Positions 41,725-59,500 of a DNA stretch of 64,000 bases are shown here, in pieces. The DNA lies in the NCBI GenBank assembly GCA_003550725.1, contig PUKZ01000144.1, positions 2,502 through 66,501 of the forward strand, written 5' to 3'. The position numbers were made by a program, and so were the translations under genes. Source of the stretch: Bacteroidales bacterium (lineage in GTDB: Bacteria > Bacteroidota > Bacteroidia > Bacteroidales > UBA7960). The notes under the pieces were generated by a model. That model was not told the origin of the DNA and made no database searches. It was given only the letters and a program-made list of their open reading frames with translations. Each line of letters begins with the position of its first letter. The stretch's first letter is position 1.

Positions 41725-43326
41725 CTAATTTTTCTTCTCTATTGAAACATTAGAAATAGAATAGCCTGTATTGCAAAGGCCACCTTCAAAAGACAGTTTC
41801 ATTGCACCGAATCTTTTTGCTTTAAAATCAATGGAAAAGCTTTGCTTTTCGTTGGTAAGGCTTATGATAATAGCCCCATCATCATCAAGTAGAGGTGTAA
41901 AGGATCTTCCATCCTTTCCAAAAAAAACACCTATATCCTTATTATCTTCTGCTTTTGCATCAAAAGATAGTGTATAGGTTTCATTATCTACCATTGAGTT
42001 GATTTGATTTGTATTTAGTTTCTGGCCAAGCTGTACCGACCAAACTTCATCCCCCGCATTTGAAATATTATTAATGTGGGCCCTCCCCTCAGAAGTGGTT
42101 ACATTTGCCGTCACATCTTTATTTTCACTTACATAAAGATACCAATTGTCATCCCATGGTTCGGAAAAGTCGCCATTAATTATAATATTATGACCTAAAT
42201 CACCCAGAACAGTTACATTAACATAATCCGTTCTTGAATTATCCCGGTTATCATTAACTGTCAGGCCAAATACATAGTGGCCTTCTTCCAGTTTTTCCAC
42301 AATAGTTTCAGCTGATGTAACATTAGTTATATTTGCCTGTGTTGGCCCTTTTTCTTGTGTCCATAAGTAGCTTTCAATATCAGATTTTGAATAACTGCCC
42401 GATCCATCCAAGATAGTTGATATGGTGCCGGGTTCCAATACCTTGTCATTTCCTGCATCAGCCACTACTCCGGATATTTTGGGGCCTGTATAACTTCCTT
42501 CACCTTCACGCCGGTAGATACGAACCCAGTCAACATACATACTGGCCGGCATAGGAGCTGTAATTCCTTCGGGGTATGTTATACCGGTGAAAGAACCCCC
42601 TACGGCAAGATTAAGAATAACAAAATGTTCCCAACCAGTAAATTCGGGTATACCTTCAATATTCATACAATGAACGAGTTTACCATTTACAAAAACCTGA
42701 ATAGTGGTTGGCGACCATTCAAGGGTAAAAATATTGTACCGGTATAATGACTGGTCATCAGGCATTATATAACTACTTGAATGATACGTATAACCCTCTT
42801 CATCCCAGTGGTTAGCAAACATAACATGGCGTTCTTGTATGCCTTCAGCAATTCCGTTTACATGACCTGCTTCCATAATGTCAATTTCGCCCCATGCAGG
42901 CCAGCTAACCTCATCAATATTAACTCCTAAAGTCCAAAATGCAGGCCAATAACCATTAGCCAATACAGGCAACTTGATGCGAGCTTCAATCTTACCATAT
43001 AAAACTGAAACCTTATCCTGGGTGTTTACACGGCCTGAGGCAAAATGAGTATCATGATGAGCATAATCGGGCAAATCTTCATTAGCAGTAAGTATCAAAG
43101 CCGGGTAGCCTTCAGGACACTCACCAACTTCCACATTACCGGCAGTATATTGCTGCATTTCGCGGTTAGCCCAGTTCCAGGGACCCCAATCGGTCTCAAT
43201 GTTCCACAAATCTTTATTAAGTGAGTCCCCCTCAAAATTGTCTTCCCAAATTAACTCATAATCACTGGCATTAACCAGCAAACAACCCATTAAAAATATA
43301 ATAGCGCCAAATAAGAGTTTTTTCAT
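41725..43326 (-). CDS. GH16 beta-glucanase (laminarinase-like) with PKD-like and CBM-like modules
   Basis: Signal peptide and the GH16 catalytic motif WGEIDIMEAG. A PKD-like segment (ADAGNDKVLEPG...) and a C-terminal CBM4/9-like segment (NIIINGDFSEPWDDNWYLY) follow. Confidence 0.9.
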   Translation of the reverse strand: MKKLLFGAIIFLMGCLLVNASDYELIWEDNFEGDSLNKDLWNIETDWGPWNWANREMQQYTAGNVEVGECPEGYPALILTANEDLPDYAHHDTHFASGRVNTQDKVSVLYGKIEARIKLPVLANGYWPAFWTLGVNIDEVSWPAWGEIDIMEAGHVNGIAEGIQERHVMFANHWDEEGYTYHSSSYIMPDDQSLYRYNIFTLEWSPTTIQVFVNGKLVHCMNIEGIPEFTGWEHFVILNLAVGGSFTGITYPEGITAPMPASMYVDWVRIYRREGEGSYTGPKISGVVADAGNDKVLEPGTISTILDGSGSYSKSDIESYLWTQEKGPTQANITNVTSAETIVEKLEEGHYVFGLTVNDNRDNSRTDYVNVTVLGDLGHNIIINGDFSEPWDDNWYLYVSENKDVTANVTTSEGRAHINNISNAGDEVWSVQLGQKLNTNQINSMVDNETYTLSFDAKAEDNKDIGVFFGKDGRSFTPLLDDDGAIIISLTNEKQSFSIDFKAKRFGAMKLSFEGGLCNTGYSISNVSIEKKN

Positions 43327-44879: not shown

Positions 44880-45257
44880 TCAATCCTCCATAGGATAATA
44901 TATACAAGTTAAGATAAATTCTCCTGAAGGGTATTTGCTTTTTTCTACGTGAAGCTTATCGGCTTTCAGTTCGATTACAAACCATATTTCAGCCATTTTT
45001 TCAATATGAAGGCTTTGTGAGTTTCTAACCCTCCAGAAGTCCCATCTTGTATCACCTTTTTGCATAGTTCCGTCATCATAGAAAATTGTGGGGGCTGATT
45101 TATCGTACTCTCCAATGCCCGGGGCTTTTTCTATAATATGAGGTATCCCCCACTTCGTATCGATAAGGTCATCCTTATCAAATATGAATTGCTCATCATC
45201 ATTACATGATGCCAGATACATACCTATCATTATTAAAATGAGTTTCAGGTATTTCAT
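44880..45257 (-). CDS. small lipoprotein, last gene of the barrel-OmpA operon
   Basis: Lipobox MYLASCN. It starts 13 nt after the 1182 aa gene ends. Confidence 0.5.
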   Translation of the reverse strand: MKYLKLILIMIGMYLASCNDDEQFIFDKDDLIDTKWGIPHIIEKAPGIGEYDKSAPTIFYDDGTMQKGDTRWDFWRVRNSQSLHIEKMAEIWFVIELKADKLHVEKSKYPSGEFILTCIYYPMED

Positions 45258-45270
45258 TTTTTTCTTAAAA

Positions 45271-48200
45271 TTACTTATCGATAATTGTAATTTCTACTCT
45301 TCTGTTTCTTGCCCTGTTTTCTTCGGTATCATCGGGAGCAATCGGGCGGCTGTCTTTATATCCAACATATTCTATGTTTCCAAAACCTTGATCGAACATA
45401 TATTTAGCAACAGCTTCAGCTCTTTTGGCTGACAACTCGGGGTTATCGATTGTTTCCCTGCCATCAGAATGACCAGCTATCTGAATCCTGATATTTGGGT
45501 TTTGTTTCAGTTGTTCAATAAAGCGGTCAAGCTCAGCATAAGCCTCGGGTGGTATTTCATCACTTCCTGATGCAAAAACAAGATTTCTGAGCTCAACTTT
45601 TGAACCTACAATAATATTTTCTATCAATATTTCTTTCTCCACATCCTGTATAGTAAGATCCCGCTCAAGTCTTAAATCATCGGTATATAACCAGTAGCCG
45701 GGAGCTGATACCATAATCGAATAATTTTCATCTGTCATAAAGCTTGTATTGAACCTTCCGGTAGTTCTATCAGATCGCGTTGAAACAATAGTTTCACCGG
45801 TTTCATTATCTACTACTTCTACCGTAGCTCTGACGGGTTGGAGCGTAGCCCGGTCTTTGACATTACCCGATAAATTGGTGCGGCTTACGCTTACAGCCTC
45901 AACTTCTATATCTCTTTCGCTTGGACGGAAATCTATGCGACGCCTTTTTTCATCAAAAATAAAATTAACTTCAAATTGGTTATAAGCATTAAGATGCACA
46001 ATAAAATTATTTTGCCTCAAATTGAAGTGTTCTTCAAAAACATCGCGTACTGAAACCACGTAATCATCGAGGCTTGGTGCATACAATTCAAATTTACCCT
46101 CACTGTCGGTAAATGTTGAGATTGTGTTGCCCCTGCTATCAACAGCTTCTATTCTTATATTTGAAACATCAATTCTGCCAAGTGTAGAAAGTTTACTTCT
46201 GTTAAGCACAACTTGTCCGAAAATTCTATTTCTTTCAAGAAAGGGAATATCTACTACCTTATCTTCAGTAACATGTACCAGCACTTCACGTACATCGGGA
46301 ACAAAATTATCACGTTCTTCACCTATGTTGTTTATTTCTATCCTGTATAGGCCGGCAGCAAGATTTTCGTAAACAACTTTACCATACATATCAGATAGCA
46401 GCTTATTATTAACCAGTCGGCCCGTATATTCATAATCTTTATCAAATTCATCATAATATCTTGGATCTTCGCGATGTATTGTTACCAAAATATTAGCAAT
46501 ACCCGGGTCGTTAGGATCTCTCTCCAGTGTACCCTGCAGATCCTTGAACAGGTTTACCGTCAAATCGTGATACTTGATCCTTGGCTGATCCCAGTGAAAA
46601 TCTTTTCTAAGCCTTATTTCAAAGTAAGTGCTTGAATAATCGTATTGATCTTCGGTAACAAGATCAGTTGATACCTGGTAACCCATGGTATTAAGAAGGG
46701 TAACAGAAAAGCCCCTGTCAAAAAAGAAATCAAGCTGATTTTGAAAATAGAACCTTGTTGTTTTATATGTAAAATCGTGTGTAAAATTTACTTGAGAAGA
46801 AAGCTTTAACATGTCCTGGTATATAAAACCTTCGTAATAAGGCATAAGGCGAAGATTTTGAGTATAAGTGCCCCGGTAGAAATAATTAATTTGCTGGTGC
46901 AATCCATAAGGCCCGTAAAAATAATTCAGAAATGTTCCCCAATCACCTCTCCTAAGGCTGAAACTAAATTGGGCGTTAAAAAATTCATCCCTTGTTTCAA
47001 GGGCAGCAATACTTGGCCCGTCTAATGGTATAGAATAATCACTAACAAAATTATATCCCAGTTCCAGGGATGGGTTAAAAAACAAATGATGATTCTCTCT
47101 TATACGTGCCCCGATCTCTAAATTGGCACTATGTGTTTCAAAAGGAGTATCATCAAAATGTATATAAGAGTTTGTTGCACGGCTTCGGTATAGCGGCCCG
47201 AAAAATAGAGCAAAACCGGGATCAAGGTATTTTGTTGTTCTGAAATTAGCTCTCCTGGAGCTGGAAAATCTATCAGAGGTTATTCCTGATTCACTTTCAA
47301 TAACAGGTTTGTTTTTTCTATCATTAAACCTTAAAGTAAATAAAAGCCCGTCTTTATAATGATAACGCATTGACCCTCTAAAGTTATGTCGACCCACAAA
47401 ACTCCCATAATAATTAGTGCTTCCATATTGCTCACGCAATCTGATTCTCAAATTATTAATCCTGCCCATGTAATTAACAATAAACCCGTAGCCGATTTCC
47501 TGCTGGTCAACAGTTTTATAGGTAGCATCACTCAATCCTCCATCAATAGACAAGCTATGGCCTTCAAATAATTGTAAATTGGTGCCTGCTCCATATACAA
47601 AAGCCTCTGTATTAAAAAACTGGTTATCCACATGGGCAAACCTGGTGTGAATGTCAAAATTTTTACGGTATGAATCGAAACTACCCCCATAAGTTCTTAT
47701 CGGTCTAAACCGATTTTCAGCTACAACTCCGGTTATTTCATTTCTGTCTAAAAAACGATATTTAGCCTTAAGGCCTCTTCCTAATCCATATTTTAAGGGT
47801 ATACTTGCAACATCTCCAAAAGCAATATTATAATCAGGGGCATTAAATGCAACTCTGTATCTGCTGTGTCTCAGAATATCATCCCGTCTTCCTATCCCAT
47901 GAGCTCGAAACCTGTAATCAATATCCCTGTTTCCATCAAACAATATATTACCCATAACACTACCTGATAAGTAGGGGTCATATTCGCTAAATAGATTATG
48001 TATAATTAGTTCGGCGGTTAAAGGTATTTCTCCCGGTGGTATTGTATAGCGAAAATAATTTGTCAGATGACTGAACCAAAAAGTCGTACTGAATTGATCT
48101 TTTTCTGTTGATGCATCGAGGTCAACCCTGTAAAGTGTTTGATCCGTATAATTATTTTCATCATCCAATTGCACAGGTAAAGTTATTGTAGTATCTTTTC

Positions 48201-48819
48201 CGGCATCGAGACGAAGTTCAAATGCAAATTCATTATTTCTTTCCCTTGGCAACGAGACGCTCTCAGTGCTTGTTAAATTTATGTATATAACTTCATCTAT
48301 ATTACCCCTGTTCTCAAACATAAAGCTTATTTCACTTTCACCTGTTTCCTGGTCGAAATAAGATACACGGGTAAGGGGCCTAAAACGCAAATTTGATTCT
48401 GCCGGGATTTTAAGGTAGCAATAGGCATTAGCCAAATTTTGATCATCACGGTCTTTGACCGAAGCAATCACCGCATAACCGATTTCACCTCTAACATCCC
48501 TGGATGCAGCTACCCTCATCGGCACTACTATAGAATCACCACCTGCTATGGTAATATTGCGCCTGCCATCGGTAATAAGAGTCCAGCCCATTGGGGCATT
48601 AAAATCAACCTGGACAACCTCCGGCATAGTACCCCTGTTTACAACAGTTAAAACATTAAAAAAAGTTTCCTCAGGTTCTATTACCAGGTCCTCATGCCTG
48701 AAATATGCCTCAATTTGAGTAAAATCATAAGATTGATTGTTGGAACTTTGCGAATAGGAGTTAACAAGGCAAGCAGCATAAATAACTATAAATATCACAT
48801 ATTTAAAGTAGGTCTTCAT
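45271..48819 (-). CDS. large outer-membrane protein: Ig-like modules, beta-barrel region, CarboxypepD_reg-like modules and an OmpA peptidoglycan-binding C-terminus
   Basis: Signal peptide, a ~480 aa Y/F/R-rich strand region, and about three CarboxypepD_reg-like segments (e.g. GKFELYAPSLDDYVVSV, TGRFNTSFMTDENYSIMVSAPGYW). The OmpA_C motifs are NLVFASGSDEI, IAGHSDG, LSAKRAEAV and RNRRVEI. Confidence 0.75.
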   Translation of the reverse strand: MKTYFKYVIFIVIYAACLVNSYSQSSNNQSYDFTQIEAYFRHEDLVIEPEETFFNVLTVVNRGTMPEVVQVDFNAPMGWTLITDGRRNITIAGGDSIVVPMRVAASRDVRGEIGYAVIASVKDRDDQNLANAYCYLKIPAESNLRFRPLTRVSYFDQETGESEISFMFENRGNIDEVIYINLTSTESVSLPRERNNEFAFELRLDAGKDTTITLPVQLDDENNYTDQTLYRVDLDASTEKDQFSTTFWFSHLTNYFRYTIPPGEIPLTAELIIHNLFSEYDPYLSGSVMGNILFDGNRDIDYRFRAHGIGRRDDILRHSRYRVAFNAPDYNIAFGDVASIPLKYGLGRGLKAKYRFLDRNEITGVVAENRFRPIRTYGGSFDSYRKNFDIHTRFAHVDNQFFNTEAFVYGAGTNLQLFEGHSLSIDGGLSDATYKTVDQQEIGYGFIVNYMGRINNLRIRLREQYGSTNYYGSFVGRHNFRGSMRYHYKDGLLFTLRFNDRKNKPVIESESGITSDRFSSSRRANFRTTKYLDPGFALFFGPLYRSRATNSYIHFDDTPFETHSANLEIGARIRENHHLFFNPSLELGYNFVSDYSIPLDGPSIAALETRDEFFNAQFSFSLRRGDWGTFLNYFYGPYGLHQQINYFYRGTYTQNLRLMPYYEGFIYQDMLKLSSQVNFTHDFTYKTTRFYFQNQLDFFFDRGFSVTLLNTMGYQVSTDLVTEDQYDYSSTYFEIRLRKDFHWDQPRIKYHDLTVNLFKDLQGTLERDPNDPGIANILVTIHREDPRYYDEFDKDYEYTGRLVNNKLLSDMYGKVVYENLAAGLYRIEINNIGEERDNFVPDVREVLVHVTEDKVVDIPFLERNRIFGQVVLNRSKLSTLGRIDVSNIRIEAVDSRGNTISTFTDSEGKFELYAPSLDDYVVSVRDVFEEHFNLRQNNFIVHLNAYNQFEVNFIFDEKRRRIDFRPSERDIEVEAVSVSRTNLSGNVKDRATLQPVRATVEVVDNETGETIVSTRSDRTTGRFNTSFMTDENYSIMVSAPGYWLYTDDLRLERDLTIQDVEKEILIENIIVGSKVELRNLVFASGSDEIPPEAYAELDRFIEQLKQNPNIRIQIAGHSDGRETIDNPELSAKRAEAVAKYMFDQGFGNIEYVGYKDSRPIAPDDTEENRARNRRVEITIIDK

Positions 48820-48833
48820 TTGCTTTGTTATTG

Positions 48834-49418
48834 CTATTTTTCCGTAATCAATACTCTAAATACCAAATCTACCACATAATAACCGAATGGCTCGCCTAAT
48901 AACTTTTTATCTCCATATTTTCCACATCTGTAGGTAATATAAACAATCTTGCTAATATCTCCTTCTCCGTCACCTTCTGTTAAAGTAACAAAATCATCTT
49001 CGAGAGGTATTTCAATTTGGTTACCGTTACCACCTTCCTTCCTGGCAACCAGGGAAATATAATCCAAGTCAAGGTCATTGTCGCCATCACCTATAATATT
49101 TTGGGTATTAGCCTTGAACTGAAGTTCCCATATATCATCCTGGCCCAGATCGTCAATATTTATTTCAAGTTTAGTCCAGTCTGCGTATTCAACACCTTCA
49201 TTGTATTTGTTAAGGGAGTTTATTCTGAAATCAACACTACCTCCGCTTATTATATTAAAACTACGCGAGGTATTACCCGATAATTGCCACAAACTAAAGT
49301 TTTGAGCAAAACTGACATTGCAGGCAAAAACACCAATAATGGTTATTAAAATAAATATATGTCGTTTATATATTACCATCAAGGTGCTTTTTAACCAAAA
49401 ATAACAACCGGAGATCAC
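48834..49418 (-). CDS. secreted acidic protein, paralogue of the 49675-50292 product (fibre subunit candidate)
   Basis: The likely start is Met at 49379 (MVIYKRHIFILITIIGVFA...). It shares NIISGGSVDFRINSLNKYNEGV with NVVSGGNIEFSFNTLADYEEGI in the paralogue. Both proteins also have a late single Cys and a hydrophobic C-terminal strand. Confidence 0.55.
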   Translation of the reverse strand: MISGCYFWLKSTLMVIYKRHIFILITIIGVFACNVSFAQNFSLWQLSGNTSRSFNIISGGSVDFRINSLNKYNEGVEYADWTKLEINIDDLGQDDIWELQFKANTQNIIGDGDNDLDLDYISLVARKEGGNGNQIEIPLEDDFVTLTEGDGEGDISKIVYITYRCGKYGDKKLLGEPFGYYVVDLVFRVLITEK

Positions 49419-49603
49419 ATAATTATATTTAATTAAAATGTGTTGGCTGAAATGAAAATATTTAATTTATTTTACCCTGAAAAGCATTTTTTGAAACTTT
49501 GCAAAATACTATACCATCACATTTGTTTTATAAAAAAAATAAAGCCGGTATCCGGTATGAGTGGCACAATATTTTGCAAAACTCAAAAGCTGCCATAAAT
49601 TTT

Positions 49604-49643
49604 AAAAAGCCAGGTGGGGTATAATAACCCAAATTGGCTTTTT
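49604..49643 (-). terminator. hairpin with A/T-run flanks immediately after the first paralogue gene (attenuator/terminator)
   Basis: The sequence is aaaaagcca ggtg gggt ataata accc aaat tggcttttt, giving an 8 bp outer stem and a 4 bp inner stem. On the minus strand the stem is followed by a T run. It lies 32 nt downstream of the stop at 49675. Confidence 0.6.
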
Positions 49644-49674
49644 ATATTTAAAAATTGCAAGCTAAAATATTTAA

Positions 49675-50292
49675 TTATTCGCCCTCATGAGGCTGCAGGA
49701 TCAAAAACACATTGGTAGAGTACCTGTCGGCAGCTAATCCTTGCGAAAGCACACTCCCTAAATTTGTTACACCTTGCAGTTCTGCAGTTGCACATTCCCA
49801 ATGTATTGTAAATGCATTAGCATTAATATCACCTGCATTACTATTAGTGCCATCATATCCAACCAATAACTCGTCAGTATCTGAGGTTAAAGCCGTTACA
49901 GTTTCATGAGAGGGTATTTCAAGTTCATCAACAGTATTAGTACCTTGGGTTGCAAGCTGGTAACCGATATTTCCAAGATCCATTCCTCCTTCCATGCCTG
50001 CATCATCAGTAGCTACTAATTCATCATCTTCGGCATACATAAAAACATCCCAGTCAACAGAAGAAGCTACTGTAAACTCTGTGTCGTATGCTGCAGAATT
50101 TCCAATTCCTTCTTCATAATCAGCAAGAGTATTGAAGCTAAACTCAATATTCCCACCCGAAACAACATTCAGGCGCAAAATAGAGCTAAGTGTAACCGCA
50201 ACCGGTATAACAGCTCTATCATCAACAGCTTGCCCAAATGATACATTTCCTAAAAGCAATCCTCCGATCAAAAGAAAAACTATACGTTTCAT
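49675..50292 (-). CDS. secreted acidic protein (major fibre/surface subunit candidate)
   Basis: Signal peptide MKRIVFLLIGGLLLGNVSFG, a very D/E/T/G-rich mature part, and paralogy to the 48834-49418 product. Confidence 0.55.
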   Translation of the reverse strand: MKRIVFLLIGGLLLGNVSFGQAVDDRAVIPVAVTLSSILRLNVVSGGNIEFSFNTLADYEEGIGNSAAYDTEFTVASSVDWDVFMYAEDDELVATDDAGMEGGMDLGNIGYQLATQGTNTVDELEIPSHETVTALTSDTDELLVGYDGTNSNAGDINANAFTIHWECATAELQGVTNLGSVLSQGLAADRYSTNVFLILQPHEGE

Positions 50293-50451
50293 AGTACAAA
50301 AATTTAAGTTAGTAATTTAAAGATATTAGTTAACAATAATTTTTTTTTAATTACCAATAAATTGTTTTTTTATCGGCATCAAAAATAATATATTATGCAT
50401 GAATTGAAAAAAAATTATTAAAATAAATTAAAAATTTAACAGAATATGATA

Positions 50452-52434
50452 TTATAAGCCATTTCCTCCTAGTTTGAATCCAATAACCAAGACATCATCA
50501 ATTTGGTCTTCATCTTTCTTCCAGTCAAAAAAGTTTTGTTTCAACAACTTTTCCTGTATATCCATTGGTTCTTTATAAATATCCAGCAAGAAATTTTTGA
50601 AATTTTTAAGAAGGAATTTTCTGTTATTCTCGCCTCCAAACTGGTCGATATATCCATCAGAGAATATATAAAACCATGTAGGTTTGTTGACAGGTATTGT
50701 TGTTTTTGAGAAATTACGTTCGGTTTCTCTTTGTACACCACCGATCGACATTCTGTCGCCTTTTACTACTTTTGCTTCGCCGTCTTGTATATAAATAATT
50801 GATGTATGTGCCCCCGAAAACTCTAATGTTTTATGCTTTTTATTGATAACACAAAGCGACATATCCATTCCATCGCGGTTATCTCCTTCTTCTTGCTTTA
50901 GTGTTCGGCGTATACCTTTATGAAGGCTGGATAATATCTCATTGGGGGTTGTAATGCCATGATAAGTAATTTCGTCAAGAAGGTTATATCCAATCATAGA
51001 CATAAAAGCACCCGGCACTCCATGGCCGGTACAGTCAACAGCCGATATTATAAATTTGTCGTTTTCTATTGGCAGAAAGTCATTATTATTACCTGATTTC
51101 ATGATGTTCGTTTCATGGCCTTTTGCTTTCTTTTTATTTGTTACCGGCTCCTTTTGTATTTTTTCTTTTGTTTTTTTGGAGCTGTTGTTATCTATTTCCT
51201 TAAACCAGTAAAAATCACCACTTACTGTATGCAAAGGTTTAAAGAATATAAATGATTCCGGCAAATAATCTTTCAGAGTATCACGAGGAGGCAATAAAGC
51301 TTTTTGAATATCTTTGGCATAGTTGATACTATGAGTAATTTTAAGGTTTTGGTCTTCAATTTTATAATATGCTTCCTGTAATTGCTTGCTTTTATTTGCG
51401 ATTTCTTTGTTGGTTGCCTCAAGTTCTCTGTTAGCCCGCTGTTTGGCTCTATAGTTTCTAAATAATATTATCAACAAAAAAGCACCTATTACAAATACAC
51501 CAATACCATATGTAATAATAACTCTTTGAGTTCGTTGTTGCTCTTCCTGCTTTTCAAGTTGAGCTTGCTGAAGTTCCCTGTCAAGCTGAAGCCTTTCCAT
51601 TTCCTGTCTTGCCAAACTGTCGCGCGCATCAGCTATCAACAAAGAATCTTCTTTAGCTTCAACTATACGGCGAATCGAATCTTGTTCAGCCTCATAAACC
51701 AACTGCTGCCGCTCTATCTCCAACTCTCTTTCCCTGCGCTCAAGCCTTTCCTGGCGCAATTCAGCCTGACTCTTCTCTTCCCGGGCATGAAAATCTTCTT
51801 TAATAGATTCTGTTGCAATATAATCCTGCAAAGTGAAAAATTTTTGCTCATAATCAGAACCTTTTGCAACATTACCAATATTATTGTAATTTTTTGAAAG
51901 CTGATTATAAATATTAAGAAGCAATAATTGATAATTGTTTTCATCAGCAATCTTCTCAGCATCCTCCAAATAATCTACTGCTCTTTGATAATCGCCGGTT
52001 AAACCAACAACATATGCCAGGTCAACCAAACCAGTGGAGATCATGCGCCCACTTCCAATTTCCCTTCGCACATTTAAACTCTTTTCAAAATAATTTATAG
52101 CCCGGCGTAAATCTTCATTATCCAAATATATAAGACCAACATTGCTGTAAACATCTTTGATCTTCTCCAAATCACCAAGTTTTTCGTAAAGAGGTATTGT
52201 TTCAAGAAAATAATTTATCGCAAGATTATCCCTCTGATTATCCCAATAAATAAATGCAATTTTACTAAGGTGCGATACTGCATTTCTATACTCATCATTG
52301 TTTCTATAATAAGAAACCATCTCTTCATACTTGTCCACTTTAGTTTGATCAGCATCACTCAGAGGCCGCTGCTGCGAAAAACTATACTCACAAAACAATG
52401 ACAAGACAATCAATAAAATAAGGGTATTTTTCAT
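50452..52434 (-). CDS. transmembrane TPR-repeat sensor fused to a PP2C/SpoIIE phosphatase
   Basis: Signal peptide, TPR repeats (e.g. RRAINYFEKSLNV, QRAVDYLEDAEKI), an E/R/Q coiled coil and a TM helix (VIITYGIGVFVIGAFLLIILF). The C-terminal SpoIIE/PP2C motifs are SGDFYWF, DCTGHGVPGAFMS and SDGYIDQFGG. Confidence 0.85.
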   Translation of the reverse strand: MKNTLILLIVLSLFCEYSFSQQRPLSDADQTKVDKYEEMVSYYRNNDEYRNAVSHLSKIAFIYWDNQRDNLAINYFLETIPLYEKLGDLEKIKDVYSNVGLIYLDNEDLRRAINYFEKSLNVRREIGSGRMISTGLVDLAYVVGLTGDYQRAVDYLEDAEKIADENNYQLLLLNIYNQLSKNYNNIGNVAKGSDYEQKFFTLQDYIATESIKEDFHAREEKSQAELRQERLERRERELEIERQQLVYEAEQDSIRRIVEAKEDSLLIADARDSLARQEMERLQLDRELQQAQLEKQEEQQRTQRVIITYGIGVFVIGAFLLIILFRNYRAKQRANRELEATNKEIANKSKQLQEAYYKIEDQNLKITHSINYAKDIQKALLPPRDTLKDYLPESFIFFKPLHTVSGDFYWFKEIDNNSSKKTKEKIQKEPVTNKKKAKGHETNIMKSGNNNDFLPIENDKFIISAVDCTGHGVPGAFMSMIGYNLLDEITYHGITTPNEILSSLHKGIRRTLKQEEGDNRDGMDMSLCVINKKHKTLEFSGAHTSIIYIQDGEAKVVKGDRMSIGGVQRETERNFSKTTIPVNKPTWFYIFSDGYIDQFGGENNRKFLLKNFKNFLLDIYKEPMDIQEKLLKQNFFDWKKDEDQIDDVLVIGFKLGGNGL

Positions 52435-52976
52435 ATTAATTAAAAATGCTACAGTAAACTTAAATCTCTAAATTGAATTTTAATAAAATGAAAACAATCA
52501 GTTATTTTCATAATTTTTTAAGCTAAATAATTAAAACTATTTACAAATATTGTTTACGTTATATTTTTTTTTATGTTATACTTTTTTTTATATTATTCAG
52601 CTAATTCTATGCCAAATATAAAGAAAAATGTCCAATCAATATGCGTATAAATACTTATTTTAAAATTACGAAAATAATGCAAAAAAATCAGAAAAACTCG
52701 TAGTAATTAATTTTATAACTTTATTGTAATTTTATGTTATTATTTGTTTTTTGTTAAATTTATTAATTGTAATATATAAAAGTTTAATTTTGTTATTAAC
52801 AATGCGTATATTACTTAATATAAGGAATTAGTACAGTAGCGGTTTTATAAATTGCAGATCAAATGAAGTATAATTTAATTATGCATTTTAAAACTGCTAT
52901 GGGATAATTTACGTATATAAACATAAAAAATGAGTTTAACCAAATTATGTTATTTTAAAAATTAACTTTTACTCTA

Positions 52977-53783
52977 ATGAAAAAACTTTTTTTATTATTA
53001 ATAATTCAGTTTTTTGCAATTTCAACAATTATTTTGGCACAGGATTTTGAAGTTGCACCAATACAACTTAATTTTCGAATTGAGCCCGGGGGTACTGAAA
53101 GCCGGACTGTTACCGTAAAGAATCACGGTAACAGGAAAGAATCTATAACTTTGACAAAGAGAGATTTTTTAGTCCACAGGAATGGTAACAGGGAGGTTTT
53201 ACCTGCGGGTTCAATTGAAAACTCTATATCAGACTGGGCTACAGTTAACCCTTCATTTCTGGAGTTGCAACCTAATGAAGAGAAAGAAATTCAGGTTACA
53301 TTTCAGGCCCCGGTTGATGATGATCATCCTGCAAAATGGGGGATATTAAGTTTTGCGTCAGCAGTTGAAAGAACAGCATATACAGCCGACAAAGATGTAG
53401 AATCAGGCATATTTTTATCGGGCAGAATAGATATTTTTTTGACATATAACCCTCCTACAGATCAAGATCCAAATGTAGTAATAAGCAACCTCAGAGAGAT
53501 TTCACCAAAAGAAGACGGCCGGAGAGTATTTGCTGTTGATATAGACAATATCGGAAGCACATTAGCAAGATCTGAGATCTTTCTTATTGCTTCGAGCCTG
53601 GAAACAGATGTTGAGAAAAAATTTGAAACACAAAGAATAACTGCTTATCCACGATCTTCAAGAAAAGTTGAGCTTATACTACCTGATGTGCTGGAAAAAG
53701 GCAAATATTCGCTTGCCGCTATACTTGATTATGGCAGCAGAACAGAACTGAAAGGCACTCAAATTACAATTGAAGTTGATTAA
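52977..53783 (+). CDS. secreted two-lobed Ig-like protein (PapD-like periplasmic chaperone candidate)
   Basis: Signal peptide, then APIQLNFRIEPGGTESRTVTVKNHGN ... ATVNPSFLELQPNEEKEIQVTF. This resembles the strand pattern of PapD/MSP-fold chaperones. A second beta-rich half follows. The call is by pattern only. Confidence 0.45.
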   Translation: MKKLFLLLIIQFFAISTIILAQDFEVAPIQLNFRIEPGGTESRTVTVKNHGNRKESITLTKRDFLVHRNGNREVLPAGSIENSISDWATVNPSFLELQPNEEKEIQVTFQAPVDDDHPAKWGILSFASAVERTAYTADKDVESGIFLSGRIDIFLTYNPPTDQDPNVVISNLREISPKEDGRRVFAVDIDNIGSTLARSEIFLIASSLETDVEKKFETQRITAYPRSSRKVELILPDVLEKGKYSLAAILDYGSRTELKGTQITIEVD

Positions 53784-53802: not shown

Positions 53803-55005
53803 ATGGATAAAATACATTGCTTAATTACTTCACTGATACTACTTACAATATCAGTAAATATAAATTGCCTGGGGCAAACTCAAACGTTCAGGGTTTACTA
53901 TAGCTCTACCGGTGACATAAAAGAAGAATATACAGGTTATATTGAACAGGGAGACACAATAAAAGAAGGCAAATACAAATTTTATCTGCCCGGCGAAATT
54001 ATAAATCAGCAAGGATATTTTGTAAATAATAAACCAGAAGGCTTGTGGAAGCTTTATTATGATGTTGGTAAACTACATCAAAAAATTGAATTCTCAAAAG
54101 GTGTAAGGCACGGAAAAATTAAAGCGTTTTATAAAGACGGGAGTTTGCAACAAAAAGGATATTATAAGAATGGCCGGTTGGACGGAGAATTTATTTCTTA
54201 TTACAACGATGGTACTGTTGAAAGTATTTCAAATTATTCAAATGGAATTCAAGATGGTTTAAAGAAAATATTTTACCCCACCGGAATTATTTACCGTAAA
54301 TTTGAATTAAGATATGGTATTGAACACGGCCTCTGGCAAATGTATCATGAAAACGGAATGATCAACTATAATGGGAAAAAATCAAACGGAGAATTTGCCG
54401 ATACTTTAAAAGTTTATTATGAAAATGGTAATATTCAAAGAATATGCTATTATAAAAACGGGCTTTTAGAAGGTAAATACAAGGCTTTTGATAAAAATGG
54501 CAACCTTAGTATAAAAACATATTATAACAAAGGCAAAATAAATGGAAAGTATAAGGAGTATTATCCTGGTGGAAATATTCTTCAGAAAGGAAAATATTCC
54601 GAAAATAAAAAAGAAGGGATCTGGAGATCATATTATAATGATGGTTCTTTGCATGCTATCGGGAAATTTTGCAATGATGATTTTTCGGGTTTATGGAAAA
54701 TTTATTTCCCCAATGGCAACATAAAGCAGATAGGTGAATACAAAAATGGCAAATCGGAAGGCTTTTGGAGATTTTATGATAAAAATGGCAATATATCAAC
54801 TTATGGAAATTACAGCAGGGATCTAAAACAGGGTTACTGGATTATATATAGACACTGGAACGGTGTTAAAACGGCTGTTATTAAATTATACAACGGTTAT
54901 GAACCGGCAAAAACCAATGTATGTTTTGATAAAGCAAGCAAAAACAAAGACTTATTATATATTAAATCAATGCCTCTAATTGTTACTCATAACAGACAAA
55001 ATTGA
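53803..55005 (+). CDS. MORN-variant/YwqK-like repeat protein
   Basis: About 12 tandem ~23 aa repeats of the type G.Y.NGK.EG.WK.YY.NG, behind a signal/anchor sequence. Confidence 0.8.
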   Translation: MDKIHCLITSLILLTISVNINCLGQTQTFRVYYSSTGDIKEEYTGYIEQGDTIKEGKYKFYLPGEIINQQGYFVNNKPEGLWKLYYDVGKLHQKIEFSKGVRHGKIKAFYKDGSLQQKGYYKNGRLDGEFISYYNDGTVESISNYSNGIQDGLKKIFYPTGIIYRKFELRYGIEHGLWQMYHENGMINYNGKKSNGEFADTLKVYYENGNIQRICYYKNGLLEGKYKAFDKNGNLSIKTYYNKGKINGKYKEYYPGGNILQKGKYSENKKEGIWRSYYNDGSLHAIGKFCNDDFSGLWKIYFPNGNIKQIGEYKNGKSEGFWRFYDKNGNISTYGNYSRDLKQGYWIIYRHWNGVKTAVIKLYNGYEPAKTNVCFDKASKNKDLLYIKSMPLIVTHNRQN

Positions 55006-55411
55006 AATCCAGATTTGCCATATCAGCAAAATCTTCACCTGCCTCAAGCATATCTTCGTCATCTACTAAATAATACCAATCAATTGTTAATTCAGGATCT
55101 TTAGTTTCAATTTGTTTTATTAAGTCCAATATTTCCAGAATCATTTTAGATGAGGCGGTATTAAAATATTCCATGGTAAAAGAAACCTGAGTCCCCGGCT
55201 TCGGATCTTTTGCATACCAGCAAAGCCAGTCTTTTATCTTTCTGTAAAAACCTCTGGCATCTTCAGGTAATGATCTGCCCGAAAATAAAATTTTCCCCTT
55301 TTGCTTGTCTAACAAAATCTCCGGGGTTTCTGACGTCCTCTTTTTGGTCAAAACTTCAGGTAAATCATTACCATATCCATTTCTGCTTATCTTTTTTTCC
55401 TTTGTATCCAT
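54983..55411 (-). CDS. SiaC-like (DUF1987) regulatory phosphoprotein
   Basis: 142 aa with GRSLPEDARGFY, YFNTASSKMILEIL, DWYYLVDDEDMLEAGEDF and NFVCYE. This matches my memory of the DUF1987/SiaC family, including the NT(S)S phosphosite context. Confidence 0.7.
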   Translation of the reverse strand: MDTKEKKISRNGYGNDLPEVLTKKRTSETPEILLDKQKGKILFSGRSLPEDARGFYRKIKDWLCWYAKDPKPGTQVSFTMEYFNTASSKMILEILDLIKQIETKDPELTIDWYYLVDDEDMLEAGEDFADMANLDFNFVCYE

Positions 55412-55513
55412 AAATAAATTAAATGGTTTAACAGTTATATTTTTTGATTACCTCTTTTTATATATGTTTATATTAAATAAAAAACAATAACAACCCGGTC
55501 ATTATTGGTTTAC

Positions 55514-55951
55514 TTAATAACAAACAAAATTAAACTTAACACCTGCCCTTTCCTCGAAATCCTCACCGGCTTCAAGCATGTCTTCATCGTCATCAAGGTA
55601 TCGCCACTCAATTTTTAATACATTTTCGTTTTTTGCTTCAAAAATCTGTTTGAATAACTCAAGTAATTCTAATACCATTTTTGAGGAGGATGAATTTATA
55701 TATTCAAACTGAAAAATAACTTTAGTGTTTTGCTTTATATTATTTTTGGCATAATTGATTACCCAATCCATTATAGGTTTGTAAAAACTTTTTGCATCTT
55801 CGGGCAAAGAACGTCCTGATAATTTTATCAACCCTTTGTTTCTGTCGAGCAAAACTTCCGGAGAATCCATAGTTCCGCTAAGATAAAAGTAATTAAGGCT
55901 TGGAGCTTCACGAAGTTCTTTATATACGTCTTTTCTTGCTGAAGTTTCCAT
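55514..55951 (-). CDS. SiaC-like (DUF1987) regulatory phosphoprotein, paralogue
   Basis: 145 aa with GRSLPEDAKSFY, YINSSSSKMVLELL, EWRYLDDDEDMLEAGEDF and NFVCY. Confidence 0.7.
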   Translation of the reverse strand: METSARKDVYKELREAPSLNYFYLSGTMDSPEVLLDRNKGLIKLSGRSLPEDAKSFYKPIMDWVINYAKNNIKQNTKVIFQFEYINSSSSKMVLELLELFKQIFEAKNENVLKIEWRYLDDDEDMLEAGEDFEERAGVKFNFVCY

Positions 55952-56515: not shown

Positions 56516-59500
56516 ATGTCTACGGAAAATAAAAAGTTTGCTTCAGAAGCATTAGAAGTTAACCTTGCCCAAACACGCAAGGCAGATATTGTTATACCTG
56601 ACGAACAAAAAAAAATTCTCAAATATTCAGAATCATACTGGGGTATAAATAAGCGTACTAAAGATTTTTTGCAGGAGTTAAATCATCCTTACGCTAATTA
56701 CCAATTTTTAGTTGATGAATACCGAAAAATCATATTAGGTGATTTTTGGCTATATGAGCAACATAACGAAGGTAAAGAAGCATTTTTGCTATTGCTCAAT
56801 ATCGCTGATAATCTTTTATCCAATAATTTGAGCAACAATGAATCAGGGCAGTTATTAAGAACATTGATGGAATTTGCAGGGGTATGTTCAAAAAGCAATA
56901 TGGCTTTCAGGGAAACTGTTATTGCAAAAGTTTTTTCAATACTTGAATCAATTTATCAAAATAACAGACACTTATTAATAAAAAATTCCGGTTTAATAAA
57001 AAAGCATTTCAAAGGATTAGCAGTTTCAGAAAATTTCTCGCAGCTCACTTTTGAGTTTACAAAAAAGATAGCTTTGGCCAATTTAGATTACTGGACAAAA
57101 AATGCCAAAGCCGGTGAGTGGTTTGATAAAAACAAGAAGCTTTTTGAGAAAGATTATTCCAAAGAGATAAAACTAATAGAAAGACCTTTTTTTGACCGGA
57201 TCAAAAAAAATATAGAGGCATCTTCCGATTGGAAATCACTGTGCGATAATGTTCCGTTTTTTAATGATATAACAGAGCATTTTCGCAGATTCATTGATAA
57301 ATTTGAAAAAAGCATTGAGAAGTTCTATTATATTATCTTTTTACTTCACTTGCCCGGCATGGAAAGCAGTCGTAATCAACTGCTTTGGGAACTGAACAGG
57401 ATACTTCGCAACATTCATGATGAGCTTAGAGCAGATGAAATAGTTGCTTTCATTGATAACATATTTTCACTATTCAAAGAGCTTAAACATGATCACATGT
57501 CAACTGTTCTTGACTGTATTCTTACCCTTGGCAAGGAGGTTATAAGTATTAAGGAGCGGAAAATTATCAGCTATTTTGAAAACAAGCTTATTGAGCTTGG
57601 TTTTGTCACACCCGGTTTGGTATATATTCAGGAAAACTGGCAGTTAAAAATTGACCCTAATCATTTGAAAAATATCAGGGTATGGCTTGAACTAATAGAA
57701 CATGCGCCATACACTTTCAGAAAGTTACTTTCGGCATTAATTGTAAACCTAAGGTTGGGCGGGATATTTATTTTTGACACCGATCTTTTTCAGCGCGATA
57801 TAACAATGTTGCTTAACAGTGATATTTCACCTTTATATAAACAGATAAAGCAGTTGACACGCATATTCCCGGTATATTTTAATGAGATTGGTGCCGAAGG
57901 TGACCTGCGTGATGTTACTACTGTTATGGACGAGATCTCAGGCAGACAGGATAAGCTCATACATTTCCTTAGAAAACAGGTGCATATTGAAGGTAATAAC
58001 TCACACATCGATCTGACTCGCAAAATTTTTCAATTCTGGTTTGACGGAAACCTGGATAATCTCAAGCCACATATCCCTGTAGATGTTTATGCAGCCATTG
58101 ATAAAGAAAGCCACTGGTTTACAAATGTTCACCAGATTATTAATCAAATGTGCTTGGAAAAAAAATGTAAGCCGGTTGATTTGCTCACTTTAAGTGAGGA
58201 TGAATTTGGTAATTTGCTTGAAGAGATAGAAAACGGCAGCAAAGACGATAAAAAACGGCTTAGACTATTGTTCAGGCTTTATAATCTTCTAAAGGAAAAG
58301 TATTCATTTGAAACTACCGACATTACAACTATTTTAAAGAAATACCCCTTCTTTGAAGAAAAAGAAATATACAAGCTTGATGACCATCTTAACAGTGGCA
58401 ACACAGAAAAAGCTATTGGAGCAATATATAAATTCATGGAAAAGCTTAACCAGGTTATATTCAGCAAAGAATACAGCCAGGGATGGGAAAGCATATATCA
58501 CAAAAGACATATTGCATTTGGTATACCTTCAATGTACGGTCAATACCGGGAGACCAAATTTGAAGCACTGGGAGTGATATTCAGGCTTGAAAAACTTGCT
58601 TCAAAGCTAATGGAGAAAAGAATTTACGGCTTTCAAACTGAATATATAACCGCCAAAGCACTTAAAGAATCATACCAGATACTTAAATTGTTTCAAAAAG
58701 GACTTGAACTAGACGGGGTTACAAGCCAGGTATTGGATTCTAATCTTCAAATGCTAAAATATGGACTTACCAGCCAAAGCTTCTCATTAGACCAGTTTAT
58801 AAATCTATTCCAGTTTATAGCAAAAAATGTGAAAGAAATTACATATACATACTTTTTTAGTTTTTATGATCAGCCTTTAAGAATGATTATTCCACAACTT
58901 TTCGATACTGAAAAAAAACTGAATGAAAAAGAGTTAAATCAGCTAATTGTAAGCAAATCCGAAGTTTTTTACAGGGAAATCCTTTACTCTTCTTTTTTGA
59001 TTCAGTTGCTCGATAATTTTGTAAGCAGAATAATTCATTCGTTACAAAATATGGTTGATAATTTTAGCCAGGAAGTCATTCGAAGAATAATGTCGTATGA
59101 TTCTGACCTGATTATAAGCCCTTTATACAAAGAAACCTTAAAAGTTGATAATCAAATTTTTCTTGGGTCCAAGGCTCTATATCAAAAAAAACTTTATTTG
59201 TCGGGATTTCCTGTGCCTCCTGGTTTTGTTTTGACCACGGAAGTATTTAGAAGCCGCCGGGCCATACTTTCCAACCCCACATTATCAAGAGAGGTTGATG
59301 ACCTGGTAAAAAGTCATATAAAAAAGTTGGAAAAGCTTACAGGCCAGCTATATGGTAGCCCTGAAAACCCGTTACTTTTATCGGTAAGATCGGGTACTGC
59401 TATTTCGATGCCCGGGGCAATGAATACATTTCTAAATGTTGGCATGAATGATAAAATAGTTGAAGCTTTCAGCCGTCAGCCCAACTTCGGATGGACATCA

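Follow-up and report, generated by a model that had tools for sequence, protein, structure and literature searches.

The closest described relatives of the system reported here are TLP-1a and TLP-1b (9ikj and 9ikk), 8-nm tubular fibrils from pond water that were solved by cryo-electron microscopy (cryo-EM) in 2024 and published as proof that cryo-EM can discover unknown bio-entities (Wang et al. PNAS, CryoSeek; PMC11494351). TLP-1 assembles by N-terminal donor-strand exchange in which the donor is subunit n+4, and its authors identified neither the producing organism nor the genes nor the machinery (PMC11494351). In Gram-positive bacteria, WxLIP (DUF916 plus DUF3324) occurs with two WxL proteins, to whose β-sandwich it is predicted to contribute a strand of its own that completes the fold (PMC10599100); according to the entry title, a WxLIP complex has been deposited in the PDB as 9i25. 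Here we describe a locus within a 64,000-nucleotide stretch of Bacteroidales DNA (GCA_003550725.1, contig PUKZ01000144.1, positions 2,502 to 66,501), hereafter the window, that encodes two small secreted proteins (S1, the major subunit, and S2), a giant outer-membrane protein (OMP), a secreted protein of two immunoglobulin (Ig)-like domains (Ig268), and accessory and regulatory proteins. S1 is homologous to TLP-1 and is very probably a fibre subunit of the TLP-1 type.

The Sec signal peptide of S1 is predicted to be cleaved before Q21 and is followed by a conserved N-terminal extension, QAVDDRAVIPVAVTLSS, which is a putative donor strand, and by an acidic β-sandwich core that ends in the conserved strand DRYSTNVFLIL. 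The AlphaFold2 (AF2) model of S1, built on a 60-sequence alignment, is a β-sandwich with a predicted local distance difference test score (pLDDT) of 92 and a predicted TM-score (pTM) of 0.80; residues 22 to 38, ahead of the sandwich, are without secondary structure in the monomer. Compared with the PDB by Foldseek, this model matched TLP-1b (3e-7) and TLP-1a (1.7e-6), both with a probability of 1.0, and after them CfaB, the TasA fibre, FimA/FimI, SafA and CanA, all of which are donor-strand fibre subunits, the matches to TasA (8aur, 1e-2) and CanA (0.14 to 0.17) being weak. The unstructured conserved extension and these best matches agree with the expectation, raised in a preliminary model-written description of the window, that the small proteins would not fold as complete globular units.

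The relationship to TLP-1 was also detected by the S1 family profile (A4, 123 members), whose sole matches among 177,635 PDB sequences were TLP-1b (E 0.0027) and TLP-1a (E 0.0077). The alignment spans the N-terminal strand and β2 (IPVxVTLNSILRLN against VTVTMDLQPVLQLS; in its longer form, avIPVsVTLNsILRLnvtsGGnIeFvFnt..Y.nGi against NVTVTMDLQPVLQLSMQGSETVSFVFSQISEYIGGL) and pairs the unstructured N-terminal segment of S1 with TLP-1b residues 6 to 20. S1 and TLP-1 thus have in common the subunit fold and sequence homology in the N-terminal donor strand, β2 and a C-terminal Y-x-T/A-N-V strand. The best-conserved parts of the S1 family are the N-terminal AQxVxDRAVIPVAVTLNSILRLNV and the last strand, DRYxTNVFLxL, to which the terminal strand of TLP-1 relatives, GVYTANVKYVL, is similar; if the extension is a donor strand, such conservation is expected, because a donor strand and its groove must fit each other. 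Remote family matches of this kind emerged from family profiles and not from single-sequence searches. Pfam and NCBIfam scans of single sequences placed neither S1 and S2 nor the lipoprotein of the locus, and the roughly 200 close homologues of S1 are all unannotated proteins without Pfam domains from Bacteroidota metagenome-assembled genomes (MAGs); by exhaustive profile search, the family amounts to 378 clusters at 50% identity.

Contigs that encode close relatives of TLP-1 show the same gene neighbourhood. A query of 59 residues from the N-terminus of TLP-1b, taken from the A4 profile alignment, retrieved 31 metagenome contigs at 49 to 75% identity (30 of them at 63 to 75%), mostly from freshwater and with a GC content of 30 to 34%. 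On one of these, L104, a 265-aa open reading frame (ORF; L104:9920-10714) matches TLP-1b over chain residues 2 to 236 with an E-value of 1.6e-67 and TLP-1a with an E-value of 5.6e-66. The match to TLP-1b starts right after the signal peptide (...AKAQ|LIDEQNVTVTMDL), and since it begins at residue 2 of the solved chain, residue 1 falls opposite Gln23 of the L104 protein; the TLP-1 precursor is secreted and cut before Gln, as in S1. The order Ig, S1, S2, OMP was found in L099, L103, L104, L106, L111, L092 and L117, that is, in every contig long enough. Searches with hidden Markov models (HMMs) identified homologues of Ig268 (E 1e-37 to 1e-42) and of OMP (E 1e-43 to 1e-83; 1,038 to 1,195 aa) in these loci. 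In pairwise comparison of the window with L104, the Ig268 proteins share 23% identity over 253 aa (E 2.7e-22) and the OMPs match with E-values of 1.8e-13 and 4.7e-10. The S2 of TLP-1-type loci is a paralogue of its S1 (E 6e-10) with a different, Cys-containing N-terminus. Because the same homologous neighbours occur in the same order, the observed TLP-1 fibre family and the window locus represent one cluster type. The neighbour genes carry C-terminal domains of the type IX secretion system (T9SS), which points to Bacteroidota as their source, and the TLP-1 subunit family is assigned to low-GC Bacteroidota contigs. In the literature searched, we found no paper that reports the genes, organism or machinery of TLP-1 or this cluster link.

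In the window, the ORF listing placed all six genes of the preliminary description exactly where it had put them. The 14-nt gap between S2 and OMP, the 13-nt gap between OMP and the lipoprotein gene and the AT-rich spacer of about 540 bp (542 bp) between the PP2C and Ig268 genes were likewise confirmed. The features of the locus are as follows.

44880-45257, minus strand: lipoprotein gene, 125 aa (ORF call; lipobox LASC)
45271-48819, minus strand: gene for the giant outer-membrane protein OMP, 1182 aa (ORF call, Pfam, AF2)
48834-49379, minus strand: gene for the second subunit S2, 181 aa from the ATG at 49379 (GTG-extended ORF to 49418, 194 aa)
49603-49644, minus strand: terminator-like hairpin in the S1-S2 spacer, -16.6 kcal/mol
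49675-50292, minus strand: gene for the major subunit S1, 205 aa (AF2, Foldseek, profile search)
50452-52434, minus strand: TPR-PP2C regulator gene, directly upstream of S1 (Pfam TPR_12 and SpoIIE)
52977-53783, plus strand: gene for the secreted two-Ig protein Ig268, 268 aa (profile match to WxLIP)
53803-55005, plus strand: MORN_2-repeat protein gene, 400 aa (Pfam MORN_2, 8e-35)
54983-55951, minus strand: two SiaC-family (PF09345) genes, 142 and 145 aa (Pfam SiaC, 3e-35 and 4e-34)

The 194-aa ORF first described for S2 is present, but the start is most likely the ATG at 49379 (MVIYKRH...), giving 181 aa, since translation from the GTG would add residues ahead of the signal peptide. Gln occupies the predicted signal-peptidase site of all secreted proteins of the locus that we list, namely, S1 (SFG|Q), S2 (SFA|Q), OMP (SYS|Q), PP2C (SFS|Q), Ig268 (ILA|Q) and MORN (CLG|Q). 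This fits the "Q-rule" of Bacteroidota, by which mature proteins begin with an N-terminal pyroglutamate.

S1 and S2 are indeed very acidic secreted paralogues, as initially described: they match by BLASTP (E 4e-7) and by profile-profile comparison (hhalign of A4 for S1 against A5 for S2, probability 99.7%, E 2.8e-26), and their mature isoelectric points (pI) are 4.05 and 4.2, respectively. The late single Cys that had been considered a shared trait did not hold across the family, 23 of 76 major subunits being without any Cys. The profile-profile alignment leaves a 14-residue gap in S2 opposite AVDDRAVIPVAVTL of S1, and nearly all S1 proteins have 22 to 24 residues between the predicted mature Gln and the SGG motif (median, 23), compared to a median of 11 in S2. 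S2 is thus a paralogue without the conserved N-terminal donor strand. In chaperone-usher pili (Fim, Pap), the distal tip is formed by the subunit that lacks an N-terminal extension, and because of this likeness we consider S2 a candidate tip, initiator or cap subunit at the fibre end. The S2 profile gave no meaningful match in the PDB. Between the two genes, 30 nt past the S1 stop codon, lies a terminator-like hairpin (AAAAAGCCA...TGGCTTTTT), and in 36 of 75 related loci the spacer contains a hairpin of -8 kcal/mol or stronger that has a T-rich tail. It may be an attenuator that gives an excess of the major subunit over the products of the downstream genes, a reading that is suggestive only; a generic σ70 promoter and terminator scan of the locus was uninformative and overlooked the hairpin.

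A scan for S1 with one genome per species found relatives in 213 genomes, and 80 loci were fetched for neighbourhood counts, originating from Bacteroidales, Salinivirgaceae, Marinilabiliales, Paludibacter, Flavobacteriales, Sphingobacteriia and Chlorobiota MAGs. The ORFs of these loci were searched by iterated HMMs, and each count was restricted to loci with a long enough contig. The recurrent order was MORN< Ig< (PP2C>) S1> S2> OMP> (lipoprotein>) (SiaC), and the components were found as follows.

Two subunits, S2 adjoining S1: 69 of 71 assessable loci
OMP, downstream of S2: 54 of 55 assessable loci
Ig268, upstream: 45 of 55 assessable loci
MORN, beside the Ig gene: 41 of 51 assessable loci
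PP2C, directly upstream of S1: 39 of 55 assessable loci
Lipoprotein: 23 of 51 assessable loci
SiaC, one to four flanking copies: 16 of 33 assessable loci

The most constant parts are the two subunits and OMP, followed by Ig268 and then MORN, while PP2C, SiaC and the lipoprotein represent clade-specific regulation or accessories; in Flavobacteriales loci, MORN, Ig, S1, S2 and OMP are kept and these three are missing. Dozens of species-level genomes show this order of genes, which puts the clustering far beyond chance. The five genes originally grouped together do co-occur across orders and phyla, with the qualification that the lipoprotein is clade-restricted, and the conserved locus is larger than that set, as it includes the MORN gene and, in this clade, the SiaC-like genes. 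According to the counts, a WxLIP-like two-Ig protein, the barrel protein (about 1,180 aa) and the two subunits, the major one and its strand-less paralogue, make up the conserved core. Overall, at least 213 species-level genomes carry the cluster, their habitats ranging across soda lakes, sediments, freshwater and guts, and the window DNA was matched in salt-lake and soda-lake metagenome runs.

The AF2 model of OMP (pLDDT 78.9, barrel blocks mostly 85 to 93) comprises a signal peptide, two Ig-like β-sandwiches (residues 36-137 and 144-251), a barrel region (267-759) with about 26 to 28 consecutive long β-strands in the AF2 secondary structure, three more β-sandwiches (777-873, 889-957 and 980-1066, the last being Pfam CarboxypepD_reg) and an OmpA domain (1082-1181). 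The OmpA domain scored 60.9 bits against the 27.2-bit cut-off of PF00691 over residues 1082-1173, and the C-terminal domain has many PDB matches to OmpA, Pal and MotB. These assignments match the architecture deduced earlier by eye, that is, Ig-like modules, a strand-rich region, three CarboxypepD_reg-like modules and an OmpA end. The CarboxypepD_reg-OmpA module resembles PorE and CHU_0125 and should tie the protein to peptidoglycan. A search with the non-OmpA part of OMP gave no additional homologues. The best membrane-protein matches of the model in Foldseek were ushers, FimD (9bog_D, 1.5e-10 over 868 columns), 9fxs_D, 3rfz_B and PapC (6cd2_C, 8e-8), in line with the outer-membrane assembly barrel first suggested, whereas the generic barrels BtuB, LptD and MtrB (8e-7 to 6e-6) were weaker by 3 to 4 orders of magnitude in E-value. 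The N-terminal pair of domains matched ASH/PapD-like Ig repeats and WxLIP (9i25_C, 7e-6); an hhalign comparison of this pair with Ig268, made to see whether the two are paralogous, was not significant (probability 3.5%, E 0.012).

The locus resembles chaperone-usher pili (Fim, Pap, CFA/I, Saf and Csu) in its Sec-dependent subunits, whose Ig-like fold is incomplete and which carry an N-terminal extension, in one subunit that lacks the extension, in a periplasmic protein of two Ig domains and in a large barrel flanked by periplasmic β-sandwich domains. In contrast to ushers, OMP has a barrel of about 26 to 28 rather than 24 strands, extra CarboxypepD_reg domains plus OmpA, no usher Pfam match and no plug domain inserted in the modelled barrel, in which a secondary structure read of medium confidence finds only short helices (607-610 and 640-649). 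In addition, the donor in the TLP-1 relative is subunit n+4 and not n+1. On its model, OMP would be usher-like in architecture, while it is not demonstrably a member of the usher family, and it is a putative export and assembly platform.

Searched as a single sequence, Ig268 had no match in the PDB, but its family profile (A3, 49 members) matches EfmWxLIP1 of Enterococcus faecium (9i25_C) with an E-value of 5e-4, residues 34-248 aligning with 27-245 and thus covering both domains. Individual family members matched fn3_5 (37 of 49), WxLIP_PGBD (29 of 49), Cep192_D6 (24 of 49), MSP (16 of 49) and PapD_N (3 of 49), as well as ASH, all below the curated cut-offs. From these comparisons, Ig268 appears to be a remote homologue of Gram-positive WxLIP, short of membership in that family, and not demonstrably PapD. 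The PapD/MSP-like strand pattern first noted for this protein finds an echo in the sub-threshold ASH, MSP, Cep192 and fn3_5 matches, but its likeness to PapD would be a superfamily-level resemblance only. Ig268 ends in ...LKGTQITIEVD, with no hydrophobic segment and no membrane anchor, and should therefore be soluble in the periplasm, since it is without the transmembrane helix of WxLIP. Its two Ig domains, and a nearest solved relative reported to bind its partner by β-strand insertion (PMC10599100), sustain the outline of the candidate chaperone first proposed. Given this binding mode, the tight linkage to the subunits and the analogy to chaperone-usher systems, Ig268 is a candidate periplasmic chaperone or adaptor for S1 and S2.

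The signal peptides of S1 and S2 end in ...VSFGQ and ...VSFAQ, with no Cys and hence no lipobox, and a role of the two proteins as T9SS cargo was rejected, as no Pfam T9SS C-terminal domain was matched. With a Sec signal, no lipobox and no such domain, the subunits need a dedicated route across the outer membrane. Type V pilins, by comparison, are lipoprotein precursors matured by proteolysis, and their assembly involves no usher. The locus shares with type V pili (Fim/Mfa) the phylum Bacteroidota and a strand-exchange polymer; it differs in the S1 and S2 signal peptides, which are without a lipobox Cys, and in the fold matches, which are not to Fim/Mfa pilins.

We propose the following assembly pathway. 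S1 would be exported by Sec, and cleavage of the signal peptide before Gln21 would expose the conserved N-terminal strand. S1 would polymerise by donor-strand exchange, the N-terminal strand completing the incomplete β-sandwich of another subunit, as in TLP-1a/b, and S2, which could accept but not donate a strand, would sit at one fibre end, in the simplest case as the distal tip or initiator that is incorporated first. In the periplasm, the WxLIP-like Ig268 would hold unpolymerised subunits by β-strand complementation and deliver them to the 1182-aa OMP, whose large barrel would export them and support polymerisation, with its Ig-like periplasmic domains docking the complexes and its OmpA domain fixing the platform to peptidoglycan. 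The MORN-repeat protein and the surface lipoprotein would be accessories, while the TPR-PP2C phosphatase and the SiaC-like proteins would couple production to an envelope or environmental signal. The locus would then be a chaperone/usher-like assembly system of non-canonical parts under SiaA/SiaC-like control, and we regard this full model of a Bacteroidota surface-fibre system of the TLP-1 type as probable, with less assurance than the assignment of S1 itself. The cautious initial reading of a chaperone/usher-like or novel surface fibre is supported to this extent, with no component falling into the classical chaperone-usher families by sequence. Such a pathway suggests a chaperone/usher-style solution in Bacteroidota, for whose surface filaments type V pili and the T9SS have been considered the only routes, and links this style of fibre assembly to the poorly understood WxL clusters of Gram-positive bacteria.

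Several observations weigh against this model. No RNA-sequencing run contains the subunit gene. S1 and TLP-1 are remote, with about 30% identity over the N-terminal 60 residues, and the mature S1 is shorter (184 residues compared to about 236 in TLP-1), so the quaternary structure may differ. The OMP model has a pTM of only 0.47, on an alignment of 18 full-length homologues; its TM-scores to ushers are low (0.23 to 0.37, compared to 0.40 for BtuB), and neither Usher (PF00577) nor PapC_N nor PapC_C was matched by the window OMP at an E-value of ≤0.1 or by 18 family members at ≤1. As for Ig268, its chaperone role rests on analogy, the best PapD_N match in the family is sub-threshold (E 1.8e-4) with no match to PapD_C, and it was not found beside the subunits in 10 of the 55 loci. 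Finally, the n+4 donor of TLP-1 implies four donor-strand chains in the 8-nm tube, which a single barrel of 26 to 28 strands cannot obviously pass or coordinate. A more specific form of the model, in which the cluster is the assembly pathway of as yet unassigned Bacteroidota pili (the tubular, four-stranded TLP-1), the peptidoglycan-anchored barrel of about 26 to 28 strands an usher analogue rather than a homologue and the chaperone one of WxLIP lineage, is advanced as a tentative proposition, more doubtful than not. If true, WxLIP-like two-Ig proteins would be an ancient class of strand-complementing chaperones, distinct from PapD and common to monoderm WxL clusters and diderm fibre systems.

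Some of these observations would be accommodated by a chaperone-free fibre, in which S1 self-polymerises outside the cell, OMP is only an export pore or anchor and Ig268 is a structural or anchoring part, such as a fibre base, a sheath or, like WxLIP, a cell-wall or host-binding adaptor. TasA fibres and archaeal cannulae (CanA) are donor-strand fibres that polymerise without chaperone or usher (PMC12518558), and WxLIP has been described as a surface anchor or adaptor and not as a chaperone (PMC10599100). The n+4 geometry of TLP-1 is also easier to reconcile with extracellular assembly than with passage through a single pore, and no usher or PapD signature rises above threshold. Bacillus subtilis TasA and the archaeal AbpA and CanA share with the window system a fibre of donor-strand-complemented β-sandwiches; S1, however, has no Peptidase_M73/TasA Pfam match, the locus contains no gene for a SipW-type signal peptidase, and the TasA-superfamily systems are without an outer-membrane platform. 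Against a chaperone-free fibre, Ig268 lacks a membrane anchor as well as any T9SS or lipoprotein signal, which makes it periplasmic by default, it is linked to the subunits as tightly as OMP across very divergent clades, and the five periplasmic β-sandwich domains of OMP suggest more than a passive pore. We thus consider chaperone-free assembly unlikely, if the most serious competitor of the proposed pathway.

Less likely still is a non-fibre function, in which the locus would be the diderm equivalent of the WxL/Csc surface complex of Gram-positive bacteria (PDB 9i25 and 9i1y; PMC10599100), S1 and S2 being monomers held by strand insertion from Ig268 and the OmpA-fused barrel serving as the anchor. 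The gene count, one two-Ig protein and two small secreted paralogues, is that of the commonest WxL cluster (one WxLIP and two partner proteins), β-strand complementation is the proposed binding mode there too, and WxLIP is matched both by Ig268 (E 5e-4) and by the N-terminal domains of OMP (7e-6). On the other hand, no match to Pfam WxL was found in 60 S1 members (E ≤1) or 70 S2 members (E ≤0.1), the WxL chain of 9i25 is not among the top 50 Foldseek matches of S1, Ig268 is without the C-terminal transmembrane helix, and the window system belongs to a diderm host and adds an outer-membrane barrel. S1 is, in addition, homologous to a protein seen by cryo-EM as a polymer whose genes lie in the same cluster type, and the extreme conservation of its N-terminal strand fits self-polymerisation. 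The last alternative, functionally unrelated neighbours with OMP as a general OmpA-type tether and the small acidic proteins as unrelated periplasmic proteins, could appeal to the fact that matches of OMP to named families are confined to its C-terminal module (OmpA, PorE/CHU_0125-like), but it is hardly credible and effectively refuted by synteny, the order being kept in Bacteroidales, Marinilabiliales, Flavobacteriales, Chlorobiota and freshwater TLP-1-type loci at 20 to 25% protein identity.

Within the proposed surface-fibre system, the accessory parts vary between clades. The window lipoprotein has an acidic run after the lipobox Cys (CNDDEQ), where its homologues have C-E-K-E, C-E-D-D or C-K-D-D, and such a run resembles the surface-lipoprotein export signal of Bacteroidota. 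It has no Pfam relative by single-sequence search and no PDB relative by profile search; it is a clade-restricted accessory and possibly acts as a surface lid or partner of the barrel. The MORN protein, a conserved accessory, is secreted and basic (pI 9.4), its gene is predicted to be co-transcribed with that of Ig268, and its profile gave no meaningful match in the PDB. The 3' ends of the MORN gene and the convergent first SiaC gene share 23 nt (54983-55005).

In the PP2C regulator, a signal peptide and a periplasmic TPR region are followed by a coiled coil, a single transmembrane helix and a cytoplasmic PP2C/SpoIIE domain. In Pseudomonas aeruginosa, SiaABCD likewise combines a membrane PP2C with a periplasmic sensor and SiaC phosphoproteins beside a surface/aggregation locus; the window PP2C differs in its TPR sensor and scores 169.7 bits with the NCBIfam SiaA model, below the 700-bit equivalog cut-off. 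The SiaC genes passed Pfam SiaC twice and reached 68 bits against the 150-bit cut-off of the SiaC NCBIfam, and no SiaB kinase or SiaD cyclase was seen among the window neighbours scanned. The SiaC-family proteins are likely substrates or partners of PP2C, with which they probably form a partner switch controlling the locus. Some related loci have three or four tandem SiaC genes (L003:4292-5629, L005:4286-5626 and L040), which suggests an expanded partner-switch module; these genes are adjoined by a GAF-domain protein, an unannotated protein of about 650 aa and an MFS transporter.

Compared to the TLP-1-type loci, the window type adds MORN, PP2C/SiaC, the lipoprotein and the OmpA end of OMP, which are absent or replaced in the former, MORN and PP2C being missing there. 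The L104 OMP (L104:11553-15107; 1185 aa, the same length class as in the window) matched neither Pfam OmpA nor CarboxypepD_reg. The peptidoglycan anchor seems to be replaced in this clade, and we consequently read it as a clade feature; the peptidoglycan-anchored platform first envisaged applies to the window OMP, with its OmpA domain, but is not universal. A WG-repeat lipoprotein of about 370 aa is conserved downstream of the OMP gene in TLP-1-type loci (L099:14344-17041, L106:15184-16308 and L111:11216-12343), and this lipoprotein and the MORN protein may be functionally equivalent repeat proteins. L099 also carries a four-domain FKBP isomerase downstream of OMP. Directly upstream of the Ig gene lie very large T9SS-sorted proteins (L099:552-6596, L104:3067-8061 and L111:51-2264) with a proprotein-convertase P-domain or PKD repeats and Por_Secre_tail or CHU_C, which could be co-regulated adhesins.

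The flanks of the window locus hold unrelated housekeeping and glycan genes (ThiF, GH16, alkaline phosphatase, a PPDK_N protein and GAPDH). The PPDK_N protein (56516-60631, plus strand; 1371 aa) has an unusual architecture, with an unannotated N-terminal region of about 900 aa followed by PPDK_N and PEP-utiliser mobile domains; it adjoins the SiaC genes but was rejected as a member of the system, having no homologue in 86 related loci. Just outside the locus on its other side, at 41725-43326 (minus strand) and unrelated to the fibre genes, lies a gene for a secreted glycoside hydrolase of family GH16, which also has PKD-like and CBM_4_9 domains.

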